Shown here one piece after another: positions 29,176-62,437 of a stretch of 64,000 nt of DNA. The stretch comes from Octopus vulgaris. Taxonomy: Eukaryota. The stretch covers positions 26,164,001 through 26,228,000 of the forward strand of contig OX597842.1 in the NCBI GenBank assembly GCA_951406725.2, written 5' to 3'. A program made the position numbers and the translations under genes. The stretch's first letter is position 1, and each line of letters opens with the position of its first letter. A model generated the notes under the pieces. It did no database searches. It was not told where the DNA came from and saw only the letters and a program-made list of their open reading frames with translations.

Positions 29176-30509
29176 GATACCAGAGGGTGCACACTCTCCT
29201 AGCCTGATGTAATCTCCAGGGATACAGGCATCCAGCAACAGGACCTCTGTAATGCCATGATGGACCGTGAAGCCTGGCGTAGCATGGTAAATTCCATTGT
29301 TTCGACCACGGTCGCGATACCAGAAGGCGCACACTCTCCTAGCCTGATGTAATCTCCAGGGATACAGGCATCCAGCAACAGGACCTCTGTAATGCAATGA
29401 TGGACCGTGAAGCCTGGCGTAGCATGGTAAATTCCATTGTTTCGACCACGGTTGCGATACCAGAGGGTGCACACTCTCCTACCATGATGTAATCTCCAGG
29501 GATACAGGCATCAAGCAACAGGACCTCCGTAATGCCATGATGGACCGTGAAGCCTGGCGTAGCATGGTAAATTCCATTGTCTCGACCATGGTCGTGATAC
29601 CAGAGGGTGCACACTCTCCTAGCCTGATGTTATCTCCAGGGATACAGGCATCCAGCAACAGGACCTCTGTAATGCCATGATGGACCGTGAAGCCTGGCGT
29701 AGCATGGTAAATTCCATTGTCTCGACCACGGTCGTGATACCAGAGGGCGCACACTCTCCTACCCTGATGTAATCTCCAGGGATACAGGCATCCAGCAACA
29801 GGACCTCCGTAATGCCATGATGGGCCGTGAAGTCTGGCGTAGCATGGTAAATTCCATTGTCTTGACCACAGTCGCGATACCAGAAGGCGCACACTCTCCT
29901 AGCCTGATGTAATCTCCAGGGATACAGGCATCCAGCAACAGGACCTCTGTAATGCCATGATGGACCGTGAAGCCTGGCGTAGCATGGTAAATTCCATTGT
30001 TTCGACCACGGTCGCGATACCAGAAGGCGCACACTCTCCTAGCCTGATGTAATCTCCAGGGATACAGGCATCCAGCAACAGGACCTCTGTAATGCCATGA
30101 TGGACCGTGAAGCCTGGCGTAGCATGGTAAATTCCATTGTCTCGACCATGGTCGTGATACCAGAGGGTGCACACTCTCCTAGCCTGATGTAATCTCCAGG
30201 GATACAGGCATCCAGCAACAGGACCTCTGTAATGCCATGATGGGCCGTGAAGTCTGGCGTAGCATGGTAAATTCCATTGTCTTGACCACAGTCGCGATAC
30301 CAGAAGGCGCACACTCTCCTAGCCTGATGTAATCTCCAGGGATACAGGCATCCAGCAACAGGACCTCTGTAATGCCATGATGGACCGTGAAGTCTGGCGT
30401 AGCATGGTAAATTCCATTGTCTCGACCACGGTCGCGATACCAGAGGGTGCACACTCTCCTAGCCTGATGTTATCTCCAGGGATACAGGCATCTAGCAACG
30501 ATGATGATG
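29036..30509 (+). repeat. Tandem array, ~10.4 x 140 bp, of the LINE 3' terminus
   Basis: Exact 140-bp period: CAGAGGG/CAGAAGG at 29041, 29181 ... 30441. Ends in (GAT)n. Confidence 0.95.
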
Positions 30510-32261: not shown

Positions 32262-32348
32262 AAGAGTGAAAAGGAACACACGTGTCGATATATATGAAAA
32301 AACAAGTCAAAAATAGAAAATGCTAAAATAATTTTGTAGTGAACATTT

Positions 32349-32386
32349 CAGTACCGGTTTCGGTCATTTTGAGACCTTTTCAACTG
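32349..32386 (-). ncRNA. Minimal hammerhead motif with U3-A8 core
   Basis: CAG-TTGAAAA-GGTC tcaaaat GACC-GAAA-CCGGT-A-CTG. Inverted partner at 32586-32624 (+). Intact + copy at 45525-45562. Confidence 0.6.
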
Positions 32387-32761
32387 TAACGATTAAATAA
32401 TTAAATTTAGAAAAATTAGAAGAAAAGTTTTTTTAAAGGAATATTTCTATAGTAGTGTTCAGATTTAAGTGGCATTCTGCCTTTCTCTGACTCCCTTGTT
32501 TGCACTTTATCTGAACACTACTATAGAAATATTCCTTTAAAAAACTTTTCTTCTAATTTTTCTAAATTTAATTATTTAATCGTTACAGTTGAAAAGGTCT
32601 CAAAATGACTGAAAACCGGTACTGAAAGATTCACTATAAAATTATCTTAGCATTTTCTATTTTTGATTTGTTTTTTTCATATATATATATATATACACAC
32701 ATAGATATATATATGTTTATATATATAGATAGATACATATCTATCTATCAGGCTCTCTATG

Positions 32762-32887: not shown

Positions 32888-33138
32888 TAAATGAAATAAA
32901 ACATATGCATATATATAAACATATATGTACGTACCTACCTCTACATGTACATATACACGCATATATGAGTACAGGACACCAAAGGGACGTCGAACACAAA
33001 GAGAAATGAAAACATAGACACAAACCAAAGGAACTGGACATTTTTTTAAAAACAATAAAAAATGGAGTACAGGACAATTAACACAACGAAAAACCCCTTC
33101 TTCAGTCGCTAAGGTTTCATCTACTCTACGTTTCGAAT

Positions 33139-33175
<37 letters not shown>

Positions 33176-33259
33176 TATAAGTAGTTGAATGAATTATCCT
33201 AGTATTGATAATTTAACTGATACCCGAAAAGTTTTTGTTCATCATGATGCTGACATAAG

Positions 33260-33358
33260 TTCCTTGTTTTTCCTGATGAGAAGGCGGCATAATGCACCCC
33301 TTATTCCTTCGAAATTAGGAAAATGCAGTCTTCGAAACATATGTCGAGAATAAAGGAA
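33260..33358 (+). ncRNA. Type I hammerhead ribozyme motif
   Basis: TTCCTTGTTTTTC-CTGATGA-GAAGGC..GTCTTC-GAAA-CATATGT-C-GAGAATAAAGGAA. Canonical core, GUC site, palindromic helix III ACATATGT. Related copies at 38545-38641, 46209-46308, 49224-49322 (+) and 38382-38457, 49061-49136 (-). Confidence 0.8.
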
Positions 33359-33398
33359 TTTTGTTAATTCGTCGTTCAACTCCATTCTTTCATTTATT

Positions 33399-33584: not shown

Positions 33585-33615
<31 letters not shown>

Positions 33616-33919
33616 GGTAAACAGTAAAAATAATTACAGACATGGACAAGAACATGAAACACCACAGAGACGACACAAGAACCACAGGACGGGACATTCG
33701 AAGCCCTCAGTCATCAGTCAAGAACCAGATCATCTTAGCAATTTCGGCTGATTAATCTTGAGATTGCTCCGATATGGGCAGCCCACCACGGGAAATCTAA
33801 GCCAAGTGCATTAGATCCCCTGGAAGAAAGCTTCGAATGTATACAACACAAGGACGGAAAACGAACGAAGTACACGAACAAAAATACAGAATACGTGACA
33901 ACAATAAGAATACAAAAAC

Positions 33920-33957
<38 letters not shown>

Positions 33958-34100
33958 GAGTGTATTTTACCTCGTTAACAATTAACACGGAAAAATAAAT
34001 AAATAGTTACCAGGGAATAAATGAATAGTATCAGTGGAATTTTCGAAACATATGTAGAAAGTAAAAATACTTGTTTAAACCTGCGTTAACTCCATTTTTA

Positions 34101-34139
<39 letters not shown>

Positions 34140-36500: not shown

Positions 36501-36543
<43 letters not shown>

Positions 36544-36791
36544 TATGAAAGAAAGGAGTTGAACGACGAATTAACAAACTTCCTTTATTTTCGACATATG
36601 TTTCGAAGGCTGCATATTCCTAATTGTGAAGGAATTCAACTCCATTCTTTCATATATTTATATTTTTTAAAAAAACATACAAATTTCCACACGAAAGCAC
36701 GTAACTTCAAACGTGTCTTCTCTGATGTGAATTTGCTACCCAGGTATCGGCTAACCGAATTATCCATAACAAGATAATTCATTCAACTACT

Positions 36792-36832
<41 letters not shown>

Positions 36833-36836
<4 letters not shown>

Positions 36837-37419
36837 GGCTAGCAGCAGGCTGTTTCACCTCATACCGAAGGAATTAGAAATGGCAGTCAAAGACTGTTTT
36901 TTCCATTTTCTGTAAGTGGAGATTCCAAAAACGAAGGCCTGTGCGGCTCACATACACAAAACCGGAGTAGCAAATAGACGCAAACAGTCACCGTTAATAA
37001 CGAACATGTTTCTGGATCACAAACATAGAAAAGTAGTTTGATTTCCGTCATCGGCGCTATATTCGATAGCTTTACCAAATGCCACAGGCCCTCACTTCTG
37101 ACCCAGCGACATCAGATAGTGGGGGGAAGTGTGCAGCTGATGTCGCTGGGTCAGAAGTGAGGGCCTGTGGCATTTGGTAAAGCTATCGAATATAGCGCCG
37201 ATGGACGGAAATCAAACTACTTTTCTATGTTTGTGATCCAGAAACATGTTCGTTATTAACGGTGACTGTTTGCGTCTATTTGCTACTCCGGTTTTGTATG
37301 TGTGAGCCGCACGGGCCTTTGTTTTTGGAATCTCCACTTACAGAAAATGGAAAAACAGTCTTTGACTGCCATTTCTAATTCCTTCGGTATGAGGTGAAAC
37401 AGCCTGCTGCTAGCCCTCT
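36833..37419. repeat. Near-perfect inverted repeat, 283-bp arms and 21-nt spacer
   Basis: 36833-37115 is the reverse complement of 37137-37419, with about four differences by eye. Confidence 0.92.
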
Positions 37420-39570
37420 TATTCACTTTACTATATACTGAACCTTACAAAGTTCCTGACGATAAATTTGTCGTATTTACATACCGAAATTTACCGGTAA
37501 ATAATTGTTGGTTACATGAAAAACCACAGAAAAATTATTTACCATTTTTATTGCATTTATATATATATATATTTACTAAGAAGATATGTTAGGCTCATGA
37601 AGAGATGATTTCAACCAAGGAAACACTGGTTCAATACCTGGTATTTTGGTGGAATGAATTTCTTTAAAACAATAGGGAAATAGTAAGTATATAGTTTATA
37701 TCTATTTAAAAGAAGAAAAGAAAACGGTGATAAGGAAGTAAATAGTTATTGATTGTTAATGACAAATTGATCATATGCAGCTTCTTACAACCGTTTCAAT
37801 TAATGTTCAATAAATCAATTACAAATTTGTACATTAAATTTACATTTATATGACATGAATATAATTTCATAAGAGGAAGAAAGATGTACTTTTGAATGTT
37901 ACGTGTAAGTTTATGAATTCATTTTAGTAGAGTCTGCTAAAATTGATAATACCATATATAACGTCCAAAAGTACATCTTTCTTCCTCTTATGAAATTATA
38001 TTCATGTCATATAAATGTAAATTTAATGTGCAAATTTGTAATTGATTTACTGGGCGTTAATTGAAACGGTTGTAAGAAGCGAATATGATCAATTTGTTTT
38101 CAATGATAAACAATTACTGGCTTCCTAATCTCCATTTTCTTTTCTTTTTTTAAATAGATATATATATACATATATATATATACATATATATATAAGTAGT
38201 TGAATGAATTATCTTATTATGGATAATTCGGTTAACCGATACCTGGGTAGCAAATTCACGTCAGAAAAACACGGTTGAAGCTACATGCCAAGGGCAGAGA
38301 TCACGTGCTTTCGTGTGGAAATTTGTATGTTTTTAAATACAAATAAATGAAAGAATGGAGTTGAACGACGATTTAACAAAATTCCTTTATTTTCGACATA
38401 TGTTTTGAAGGAATAAGGGGTGCATTATGCCGCCTTCTCATCAGGAAAAACAAGGAACTTATGTCAGCATCAAGATGAACAAAATCTTTTAGATGACTGC
38501 CCATACGGAGCCCATAGCGATAATCATCTTGATGCTGACATAAGTTCCTTGTTTTTCCTGATGAAAGCGGCATAATGCACCCCTTATTCCTTCGAAATTA
38601 GGAATATGCAGCCTTCGAAACATATGTCGAGAATAAAGGAATTTTGTTAAATCGTCGTTCGACTCCATTCTTTCATTTACATATATATATATATATATAT
38701 GTACATTATTTAAAAGCAGCAGAAATATAACAAAAGCTGTTACTCGGAGTTTCCCGTTCCTGTTCGTCGGACAGTTTTGTTAAAATGGAACTGAAATAAC
38801 GATATAACCAAAACTAGTTAAAGGATACACCTTTAAAAATGTCCAACAAACAGGAACAAGAAACTCTGAGTAACAGCTTTTGTTATATTTCTGCTGCTTT
38901 TAAATAAACAATATTACTCCACCTCTGGTATTTGAGTACTCTACCTCTGGTATTTGAATACTCTTTTTTGAGTACTCTACCTCTGGTATTTGAGTACCAG
39001 AGTACTTACTCTGGTATATATAGCAAAGTAAAGTTGATTTACTGAGCATTAATTGAAACGGTTGTAAGAAGCGAATATGATCCATTTGCTGTCAATGATA
39101 AACAATTATTAGCTTCCTAATCTCCATTTTCTTTTCTTTTTTTTTAAATGGATATATATATGCATTTGTCCTTCATTCAATTATTACTGTTCTTATTCTG
39201 ATTCGTGTCCATTGTCTGGAAATCTTTTGTTACTCCTCTGTGACCTCTTCAGTGACACACTCTTCATGTGTGCTCTTGCTCTACTGATTCCTCTCTGTTC
39301 TCCTCTGTTGTGTATCCTTTGATGAGCATGCGTCTCTGTATGTGTACGTGTGTGTGTGTATGTGTGTGTGTCTGTGTTTGTGTGTGTGTGCATGCTATCA
39401 TCATCAATATTGTCATCAACATCATCTTCATCATCATTGTCATCATCGTCGTCGTCATCATCATCATCGTCATCGTCGTTGTCCTCCTCATCATCATCAC
39501 CATCGTCATCAGCATTCTCATCTTCATCAGCTTCGTCATCATCGTCATCAGCATCATCATCATCGTCATC

Positions 39571-40133: not shown

Positions 40134-41643
40134 TACCTCAATGAGGCCAAGACTGAATATATAAACAAGTGCCTGTCCAATAGTGATTGCATCATCCATA
40201 CTCTCAACAATGCGCCCTTAAATATGGTTTCTGATTACAAATATCTTGGGTCATACATATCATCATCTGGAAAAGATTTTCTAACTAGAAAGGGTATGGC
40301 CTGGTCAGCCTGTAATGACATGCATAAGATCTGGTCATCAAATCTAAGTAGAGACTTCAAACTTGAAATCTTCAAAGCCACAGTCGAACCAATTCTACTA
40401 TATGGCTCAGAAACCTGGACGTTATCAAAGAAGCTTGAGAGGCGGTTGGATGGAACCTACACTCGCCTCCTTACGAGAGCTCAAAATCTCTCGTGGAAGC
40501 GTCATCCAACCAAAGTACAAATATATGGGAAATTACCACCTGTGTCATCTCTTGTGAAAGGTAGAAGAATCCAGTTTGCTGGACATTGTTGTAGAGCTGA
40601 AAAAGAAGTAATTTCTACTCTTCTCCTCTGGAAGCCATCTACTCGCAATACCAGAGGGCGCACGCTCCCCTACCCTGATGTAATCTCCAGGGATACAGGC
40701 ATCCAGCAACAGGACCTCTAATGCTATGAAGGACCCTGAAGTCTGGCGTAGCATGGTAGATTCTATTGTCTCGACCACGGTCGCGATACCAGGGGGTACA
40801 CACTCTCCTACCCTGATGTAATCTCCAGGGATACAGGCATCCAGCAACAGGACCTCCGTAATGCTATGATGGATCGTGAAGTCTGGCGTAACATGGTGAA
40901 TTCCATTGTCTCGACCACGGTCACGATACCAGAGGGCGCACACTCTCCTACCCTGATGTAATCTCCAGGGATACAGGCATCCAGCAACAGGACCTCCGTA
41001 ATGCCATGATGGACCGTGAAGTCTGGCGTAGCATGGTAAACTCCATTGTCTCGACCACGGTCGCGATACCAGAGGGCGCACACTCTCCTACCCTGATGTA
41101 ATCTCCAGGGATACAGGCATCCAGCAACAGGACCTCCGTAATGCCATGATGGACCGTGAAGTCTGGCGTAGCATGGTAAACTCCATTGTCTCGACCACGG
41201 TCGCGATACCAGAGGGCGCACACTCTCCTACCCTGATGTAATCTCCAGGGATACAGGCATCCAGCAACAGGACCTCCGTAATGCTATGATGGACCGTGAA
41301 GTCTGGCGTAGCATGGTAAATTCCATTGTCTCGACCACGGTCCCGATACCAGAGGGTGCACACTCTCCTACCCTGATGTAATCTCCAGGGATACAGGCAT
41401 CCAGCAACAGGACCTCCGTAATGCCATGATGGACCGTGAAGTCTGGCGTAGCTTGGTAGATTCCATTGTCTCGACCACGGTCGCGATACCAGAGGGCGCA
41501 CACTCTCCTACCCTGATGTAATCTCCAGGGATACAGGCATCCAGCAACAGGACCTCCGTAATGCTATGATGGACCATGAAGTCTGGCATAGCATGGTAAA
41601 TTCCATTGTCTTGACCAGGGTTGAACAATGGTGATGATGATGA

Positions 41644-41646
<3 letters not shown>
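40134..41646 (+). mobile_element. RTE-group LINE 3' part followed by 7 x 140-bp terminal repeats and a native-like (GAT)n tail
   Basis: Open RT C-terminal frame 40134-40721. Units at ~40646-41625. Ends GGTTGAACAATGGTGATGATG. Confidence 0.88.
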
Positions 41647-41688
<42 letters not shown>

Positions 41689-41691
41689 TAT

Positions 41692-61126: not shown

Positions 61127-62059
61127 ATGACTTCATCCACAACACCGGATCGCGACAGCTTTCTGTTGCATCACCTCTTGCAGAACTGTACCAAGGCATA
61201 TCTCAGGTCAGCGGCACTCTACGAGGTCTTTGTGGTCGCGAGTCACACGGCGCATGTGGCGCGGGGCCGAGGAACGGACAGCGGCGTCGGCGTCGGGATC
61301 GGCGCCCCGAGCATCGGCGTGCTCGGCGGCACGCCCGGTAACGCGCAAACATTACCGGCGACCGCGATCAACGGTGCCGCTGACCGAGCCTCCGGGACGA
61401 GCATCGGTGGCAGCGGCGGAGCTGGCGGCACCGGGGCCACCGGCGGCACGGGCGGCGAAGAGATCCAGCTCCTTTCGCGAGAGGTCGGTCTCACCGTGGC
61501 CGGAGTCCTGGCCATATTTTCCATAGCCGCTGTCCTCATGAACGGGGGCGTGATCGCCATGTTCGCCCTACGACGCGACCTCATAACCCCAACAAATATC
61601 TTCATCGTAAATCTCACCCTCTGCGACCTTCTAATAGCAACATTCGGCAACCCTTTCGCTATTGTTTCTGGCGTGATGCGACGCTGGTATTTCGGCCACA
61701 GCGGCTGCGTCTGGTACGGATTCACCATGACGCTCCTGGGCCTCAACTCAATCACCCTGCTCACGGCCATCTCTGTCGATCGATACATCCTCATCGTACA
61801 CACCATTCGAGCGGTCACCATCAGTAAAAAGGCATCCCTCATCTCAGTATTTGCTTGTTTGATGTGGGCATCATTTTGGGCTGGAATGCCCTTACTCGGT
61901 TGGAATAGCTATGTGACTGAAGTCAGCGGCTTGGCATGTAGTGTGGACTGGCGAGGGCGGAACCCCGGTGATACATCCTATATAGTACTTCTCCTGGTGT
62001 TCTGTCTGGTTTTGCCCATGCTGACAATAGGGTACTCCTATATACGCATATTCTGGACG
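61127..62059 (+). CDS. Opsin (class A GPCR), first coding exon, N-terminus through TM5; probably xenopsin/c-opsin-like
   Basis: LITPTNIFIVNLTLCDLL (TM2), WYFGHSGCVWYGF (Cys110, Tyr113), DRY, WAGMPLLGWNSYVTE...CSVDW (Glu181, Cys187). Phase-0 donor ACG|GTAAGT at 62059/62060. The TM7 lysine lies outside the window, so the subtype is inferred. Confidence 0.88.
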
Positions 62060-62437
62060 GTAAGTCATATACAATTTAATTTATCTATATATATAAGTAC
62101 AGGAATAAGGGTGTCTGTCTATATCTATATATATATATATGTGTATATATGAAAATTATAATTAAGGGTATCGAAGAGATACCACCATGCTTGAAATAGC
62201 AGGTAGAACCGAACTCTAAAACCACACCATGGATTCATACAGCACAAAGTATGACTACATAATGTGGTTTTAGAGTCAGGTTTTGACTGCTATTTCGAGC
62301 ATGGTGGTATCTCTTCGATACCCTTGTTTATAATTCTAATAATAATTATTACCTATAAGGTTTTTTTTCCCATGCTGGCCACTTGATACGATTGTTATTT
62401 TAAATAACGGTCTTATCCTTATTTATATAAAAATTTA

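Follow-up and report, generated by a model that had tools for sequence, protein, structure and literature searches.

The window analysed here, 64,000 nucleotides of the Octopus vulgaris contig OX597842.1, contains a hammerhead ribozyme motif at 33260-33358 on the plus strand. The motif lies within a repeat that is present as six full copies and one half copy, derived from three insertions (33180/46129, 38195/48898 and 36793 on the minus strand). Part of the window is duplicated in tandem: self-BLAST delimits a block at 28523-50713 in which approximately 28.5-40.0 kb is copied at 40.1-50.7 kb. The duplication doubles every copy of the repeat except the one at 36.5 kb, and the flanks are 98.5-99.8% identical. 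Such a tandem duplication, 11-13 kb at approximately 99% identity, could be an uncollapsed haplotype. The window also contains an opsin-like 7TM exon at 61130-62080 on the plus strand; the sole named relative among the five listed is a ‘melanopsin-like’ protein of Octopus sinensis (63% identity). At 28202-30499 and 40134-43546, a reverse transcriptase (RT) fragment (RVT_1, DUF6451) runs into 140-bp tandem arrays of 10 and about 20 copies. A 300-bp repeat flanked by (TA)n (3568-3873 and 33604-33908; 95% identical) carries TTCGAATGT on each strand.

A type I hammerhead with a long helix II

The initial annotation described the motif as a canonical hammerhead, and the sequence bears out the core and all three helices, together with a GUC site whose last letter is at 33345. 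This long form with an intact core (L33k) was identified from sequence, a descriptor scan and the Rfam model RF00163. Helix I (33260-72/33346-58) spans 13 positions with a 2x2 internal loop. It is followed by CUGAUGA (33273-79), helix II with the strands GAAGGC/GUCUUC (33280-85/33328-33), and GAAA (33334-37). Helix III is the self-complementary ACAUAUGU; as ACATATGT at 33337-33344, it would form a 2-bp stem with a tetraloop in a monomer and an 8-bp duplex in a dimer. Cleavage is predicted after C33345. Helix II encloses an insert of 42 nt (33286-33327) that contains an internal CCTTCGAAA and, in the constrained fold, an inner hairpin (33302-33323). The GAAGGC/GUCUUC closure and the internal CCTTCGAAA are present as annotated, but the insert had been given as about 45 nt and branched, whereas in the fold constrained to be active it is a single stem without branches, interrupted by an asymmetric loop and capped by a terminal hairpin.

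The letters that define type I (C3-U4-G5-A6-N7-G8-A9, G12-A13-A14, A15.1-U16.1 and an NUH site) are found in L33k and in two other copies, the long L49k and the short S49k. The short copy S38k departs from the core letters, and the core of the long copy L46k is altered. Three helices around the core, the G10.1-C11.1 pair and an open helix I are all present, but not as the lowest-energy fold of the monomer. For a putative tertiary contact between loop 1 and loop 2, helix I offers an internal loop, but helix II has no short terminal loop.

A strict descriptor scan of the window returned two matches, L33k and S49k only, against none in all 30 shuffles. With a looser setting, six matches were obtained compared with 0-1 in shuffles, and TTCGAAACATATGT matches eight times where 0.04 matches are expected. 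In local Rfam scans, Hammerhead_1 (RF00163) scored 22.7 bits for L33k (E 0.0018) and 25.5 bits for the short S49k. All 45 model positions, covering the core, helix III and helix I, align in both forms, while 50 letters of the long form and 27 of the short form land in the model's 10-position loop. Neither form reaches the gathering score of 34 bits, and the family is thus missed by routine Rfam annotation: the whole-window scan includes no hammerhead among the matches listed (150 of 251), whereas local scans recover it. The hammerhead RNA motif at 33260-33358 is real.

Insertions and composite copies

Each of the three independent insertions sits between (TA)n tracts. The 33k insertion (33180-33394, plus strand) joins the first 35 nt or so of a sequence termed segment A to a single hammerhead arm. 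Its duplicate at 46129-46344 (plus strand, 99.1% identical) contains L46k, which has an extra A in GAAA. A more complex structure is found at 38195-38680. This 38k composite consists of segment A (38195 to about 38340), an inverted arm carrying S38k (38382-38457, minus strand), the 45-nt upstream sequence of the family (about 38479-38523) and a forward arm carrying L38k (38545-38641, plus strand), after which it closes with (TA)n. The 49k composite (48898-49362) is its duplicate, with an extra 26-nt deletion 3' of the short hammerhead. It includes S49k (49061-49136, minus strand) and L49k (49224-49322, plus strand); both cores are intact, and helix II of L49k contains an A-C mismatch. A single insertion, later duplicated, accounts for both the 38k and the 49k pair, with flanks 99.1% and 99.8% identical. 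The third insertion (36515-36793, minus strand) is independent and is the same composite with an internal deletion, comprising segment A, the tip of the inverted arm and the 3' half of a long hammerhead. Judged by its sequence, the 33k insertion is likewise an internally deleted derivative.

The insertions have a 19-nt 5' end at the (TA)n border in common (five matches versus 0.07 expected). TTCAT(T/A) closes the copies ahead of (TA)n, some 35 nt past helix I, which places the hammerhead near a fixed 3' end. At 38345-38680 and in its duplicate, the forward arm has an inverted, 5'-truncated partner head to head, and the junction between segment A and the inverted arm recurs at 36.6k and 38.3k. 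The two 49k arms differ at 2 of 108 aligned positions, and both differences are common family alleles. Penelope-like elements optionally carry a tail of 30-40 bp; no tail difference was seen between the arms here, and no target-site duplication is discernible in the window copies, where it would be masked by the (TA)n flanks. The outer ends of the composite share only the 7-mer AGTTGAA at different offsets, and no terminal inverted repeats reach both ends. On the minus strand, segment A (38195-38340) ends like a hammerhead arm (TTCAACT); it also contains CTGA(C/T)GT as well as two hairpins, lacks a full hammerhead core and is high-copy in sequencing runs.

Origin of the short form

The short form arises from the absence of exactly 23 nt between two CCTTCGAAA repeats, a 9-nt direct repeat. 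In S49k, this one segment is gone and GAAGG/CCTTC and the core are kept, as the initial annotation stated. That annotation also placed long and short forms back-to-back on opposite strands at 38382-38641 and 49061-49322, and these coordinates are right. Core lesions are present in three of the six full copies: S38k reads CCTTCAAAAC, in which G12 is replaced by A; L38k is without 2 nt at the border of core and helix II, so that the first helix II pair is lost; and L46k has its extra A. The two small indels could be long-read errors. Given the lesions in S38k and L38k, intact cores on both strands are confined to the 49k pair.

As the local duplication is approximately 99% identical, the two short copies reflect one event. 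Neither the 23-nt deletion nor its joint is listed at 2% or more in any of four sequencing runs (24 loose-end rows listed, 132 more); since contigs drop rare variants and further loose-end rows exist, this result sets an upper limit on the frequency of the short form and does not imply its absence. These comparisons indicate that the long form with its 42-nt insert is the normal state of the family and that the short form is a single local deletion. The proposal that two alternative helix II architectures characterize the family is therefore not borne out, with one independent origin in the window and none at 2% or more in the four runs. A unique deletion with a single origin and direct-repeat boundaries is also, in part, the outcome that the annotation had set against its own reading. 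The contrast between long and short forms is an ordinary deletion, and the pair can serve as a control for whether the insert matters.

Abundance and variation of the family

The 49k stretch, or part of it, is present in 20 of 24 listed runs from nine studies and three organisms, and no RNA run is listed among the runs holding it. Four runs (X1, X2, X4 and X6; three organisms) were aligned to 33178-33396 at 80% likeness with a 2% reporting floor, using contigs, not raw reads. X1 is only guessed to be RNA, and the other three are not so guessed. The repeat is high-copy: 65, 1592, 1321 and 866 contigs fit this interval in the four runs. The 45-nt upstream sequence is seen as loose ends before 33227 in all four. 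Depth is near zero at 33218-33225 in each run, and the junction between segment A and the arm at 33k is thus locus-specific.

Variation is observed at 18 of the 99 motif positions, nine of which are within the helix II insert. None of the 12 core positions is among them (chance P about 0.08, with the 2% floor). A33312G, at 9-73% across the four runs, breaks the internal CCTTCGAAA, which is accordingly not conserved. A different insert of similar length also recurs, with loose ends at 33309 and 33328 in X2, X4 and X6 (7-12 contigs per row). In helix II, the pair 33284/33329 alternates between G-C and A-U at matching frequencies (A33284 with U33329; r 0.94, n=4, p 0.06), with a mean frequency gap of 0.05 versus at least 0.09 for 12 other variants; as position 33318 correlates as well (r 0.99), this match of frequencies reflects subfamilies and is no evidence of linkage. 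G33283A, at 9-36%, creates an A-C mismatch in helix II with no compensating change listed.

The repeat thus represents an animal hammerhead family that is high-copy, has an unusually long helix II and falls below the Rfam cut-off, and hammerheads in such genomes are probably undercounted for this last reason. A literature search for hammerheads in octopus or cephalopods yielded, besides unrelated papers, only Craig et al. 2021 and the giant squid genome paper, which gives 235 Hammerhead_1 loci. A search outside subscription papers, Repbase and Dfam found no published description of the family, and the word ‘ribozyme’ does not occur in the main text of a paper on O. vulgaris repeats. Metagenome contigs, viral contigs and prokaryote genomes were scanned for the pattern, with zero matches in each.

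Folding of monomers, dimers and composites

For each of the six copies, whether of the long or the short form, the computed cost of the active monomer fold is 4-5.6 kcal/mol, and this fold is rare in every one (P about 1e-3 to 1e-4). The 8-bp homoduplex of the palindromic helix III is estimated at -7.0 kcal/mol. By a rough sum, two active-open folds plus this duplex are more stable than two ground-state folds, with a margin of about 2 kcal/mol in L33k and in S49k; for L49k, the active dimer is favoured by 0.2 kcal/mol only. On these estimates, cleavage after GUC would be weak in a monomer and stronger once helix III joins two RNAs. The short form, if transcribed alone, would probably cut about as well as the long form. 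In the lowest-energy fold of L33k, the insert pairs with the core; the idea that the insert is a built-in switch was not sustained, because L49k and L38k adopt other folds and the internal repeat is variable.

Composites that are transcribed through behave differently in these models. Their folding energies are -184 to -224 kcal/mol, the core is paired whichever strand is transcribed, and in the 49k composite the probability of being unpaired is 0.00 at all seven core positions on both strands. The head-to-head layout is thus predicted to bury rather than double the ribozyme. In either polarity, read-through RNA would contain the complementary (antisense) arm first, which would then pair with the core, leaving the ribozyme silent inside a long hairpin. 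Escape would be expected only if transcription starts inside the 45-nt spacer. Head-to-head copies cannot supply the helix III dimer in cis. The annotated claim that both transcript polarities carry a ribozyme is therefore literally correct at 49k only, and even there both cores are predicted to be paired in read-through RNA.

A probable Penelope-like terminal repeat

The data directly support the motif, its copies with their (TA)n flanks, the abundance of the repeat, the boundaries of the deletion and the duplication within the window. We propose, with a probability of roughly 0.75, that the (TA)n-inserted repeat is the 3' terminal repeat (pseudo-LTR) of an endonuclease-bearing (EN+) Penelope-like element (PLE) or of a non-autonomous derivative, in which the hammerhead trims precursor RNA, probably as a dimer. 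Cleavage would trim the precursor RNA of the element, and a Penelope-like protein with RT and GIY-YIG domains encoded elsewhere would insert 5'-truncated copies into (TA)n. Insertion would often occur head to head, so that head-to-head copies would be insertion products. The motif appears to resemble PLE hammerheads in its working and is likely to belong among them. From sequence comparison, its ends seem most like those of the Hydra clade. The family is a new addition; the head-to-head hammerhead layout itself is already known for Penelope-like elements.

Several published systems support this comparison. As described in Cervera and de la Pena 2014 (PMC4209133) and a review (PMC6765202), with further context in Perreault 2011, the pseudo-LTR hammerheads of metazoan PLEs are type I, with a large helix II, a short proximal helix I and a small palindromic helix III. 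They are mostly solo copies, with some in dual, opposite-strand pairs 100-700 bp apart, and PMC4209133 reports a palindromic short helix III, a large helix II and low activity as dimers. The family described here differs in its 42-nt structured insert in helix II, in having no extra nucleotide between A9 and G10.1, and in that no RT frame was found with it in the window. For the anole Poseidon element, hammerhead cleavage was unnecessary for insertion in vitro (PMC11167929).

The Hydra clade provides the closest parallel. The supplement of Craig et al. 2021 (PMC8557442) includes elements that prefer (TA)n and carry a hammerhead near the 3' end, with a member in Octopus, as well as Penelope-13_HM, which has hammerheads on both strands. 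Hydra-1_Obim and Penelope-13_HM share with our copies the (TA)n targets, a canonical core near the 3' end, a near-palindromic helix III, and an inverted 5'-truncated copy with a hammerhead per strand. In contrast, the Hydra loop 2 lengths listed there are 3-10 nt compared with the 42-nt insert here, and the hammerhead sequence of Hydra-1_Obim is unrelated. In Files S1/S2 of the same study, the only long loop 2 sequences listed are those of PLE-X1_sMoe (35 nt) and PLE-X1_sTam (29 nt). A preference for (TA)n is common to Naiad targets as well and is not diagnostic of the Hydra clade alone. The Penelope elements of Adineta vaga (Arkhipova et al. 2013, PMC3846280) likewise have head-to-head inverted pLTRs in which one arm is shorter, with microhomology-mediated deletions in copies. 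They differ from the present copies, in which no ORF, tail or target-site duplication was seen, the arms carry different family alleles, and the extra segment A bounds the unit.

The 134 filtered open frames examined in the window, outside the duplicated block and the tandem arrays, include no Penelope-like RT or GIY-YIG frame, which is compatible with truncated or non-autonomous copies. The RT fragment at 28202-28933 (RVT_1 and DUF6451) was rejected as the element's own, as 4 kb separate it from the repeat and the two are not joined. Membership in the published Octopus Naiads was rejected as unproven, the two short likenesses seen by eye being in a different order. GTTCAACTCC and CTGATGAGAAGG gave zero matches in the published Naiad, Chlamys and Hydra consensus files, where line breaks could hide a match.

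Alternative and refined interpretations

The Penelope-like explanation can accommodate a refinement that we regard as a real though tentative prospect, namely that the composite of about 490 bp (segment A, inverted arm and forward arm) is a non-autonomous element copied as a unit by a Penelope-like protein. In all three independent insertions, the same 19-nt 5' end at the (TA)n border is linked to a hammerhead arm, the A-to-inverted-arm junction is repeated at 36.6k and 38.3k, and segment A is itself high-copy. The two differences between the 49k arms, being common alleles, are unexplained by a fresh mirror copy, although gene conversion could account for them. Three insertions within 6 kb could nevertheless stem from an old local rearrangement, and short contigs cannot reveal linkage of segment A to an arm elsewhere.

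A bolder extension is rather improbable. It holds that Octopus-like genomes contain an abundant, protein-free parasite of Hydra-clade Penelope elements, about 490 bp long, which has outward-facing ends only and is copied as a unit. Its long-insert hammerhead, which escapes Rfam, would cut only as an intermolecular dimer; its arms would come from two RNAs, with dimerization supplying the second template for the head-to-head junction. Should the composite move as a unit with arms from two templates, it would offer a genome-scale handle on the head-to-head ends of PLEs and the role of their hammerheads.

It is unlikely that the copies are dispersed monomers of an animal non-LTR retrozyme, in which a tandem hammerhead repeat yields circular RNA. 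Invertebrate retrozymes have type I hammerheads with a helix III of 2 bp and a tetraloop (PMC7229834), and dispersed, pLTR-derived monomers are described in a preprint (bioRxiv 10.64898/2026.07.22.740005); in these accounts, retrozymes are like the present family also in being non-coding, high-copy and likely PLE-derived. However, retrozymes require tandem units, whereas the arrangement here is inverted, without a head-to-tail unit within the window, and the loose ends listed behind 33391-33393 are AT-rich rather than upstream sequence.

We consider it very unlikely that the repeat is a foldback or MITE-type DNA element with the hammerhead as an inactive relic. The palindromic shape, the TA flanks and the frequent core lesions of the local copies would fit such an element, but inverted repetition between the outer ends of the composite goes no further than the 7-mer, the solo arms and asymmetric junctions suit retro-insertion, and the core is invariant at the 2% level across runs.

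Least probable is the reading in which both lengths of helix II are maintained as separate architectures, their pairing allowing transcripts of either polarity to self-cleave. In its favour, the short form retains the core together with a helix II of 5 bp, its active fold costs about as much as that of the long form (4.3-4.9 versus 4.5-5.1 kcal/mol) and both cores are intact at 49k. The short form nevertheless has one independent origin, is not listed at 2% or more as a deletion or joint in any of the four runs, is core-mutated in its 38k duplicate and would have its core paired in both polarities within the -184 to -224 kcal/mol hairpin, in a layout that recurs nearby with unrelated hammerheads.

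Neighbouring palindromes and hammerhead-like motifs

The head-to-head hammerhead layout is generic in this window. A relaxed scan returned nine matches, whereas 40 shuffles averaged 0.33. The layout is shared by at least three nearby palindromes (32262-32700, 36833-37419 and 38706-38907), which carry unrelated hammerhead-like motifs on diverging arms. The first of these, duplicated at 45176-45666, is a palindrome in (TA)n with a hammerhead per arm and a U3-A8 variant of the core (TTGAAAA). It has a 4-bp helix II, a palindromic helix III and a GUA site, and gives a weak match to Rfam HH9 (19.1 bits). The second is a 587-bp palindrome with arms 97.6% identical. At 37054 on its minus strand, it contains a hammerhead-like motif with a U4C core, a 35-nt helix II region and an NUU site, which is a second candidate for a long helix II. 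The left arm of the third shares a 19-nt stretch of core and helix with the Hydra-2_Ajap hammerhead; its helix II looks decayed.

Other motifs in the window are less complete. A palindrome at 37684-38160 has GAAAC-GGTT-GTA on both arms with a decayed 5' core, and a solo arm of it is found at 39034-39165. A relative of the 3' half of the family, with the same helix III, a GUA site and no 5' core, is present at 33955-34105 and 46570-46745. At 33060-33132 on the minus strand, GAAAC-GTA lies upstream of CTGAAGA, in the order of the ‘half core’ of the Octopus Naiad; this is possibly a permuted hammerhead-like motif. Single hammerhead-like motifs are also found on the minus strand at 972, 7852 and 10018; the one at 10018 matches the pattern of the Hydra clade, in that helix II is flanked by one additional nucleotide on either side.
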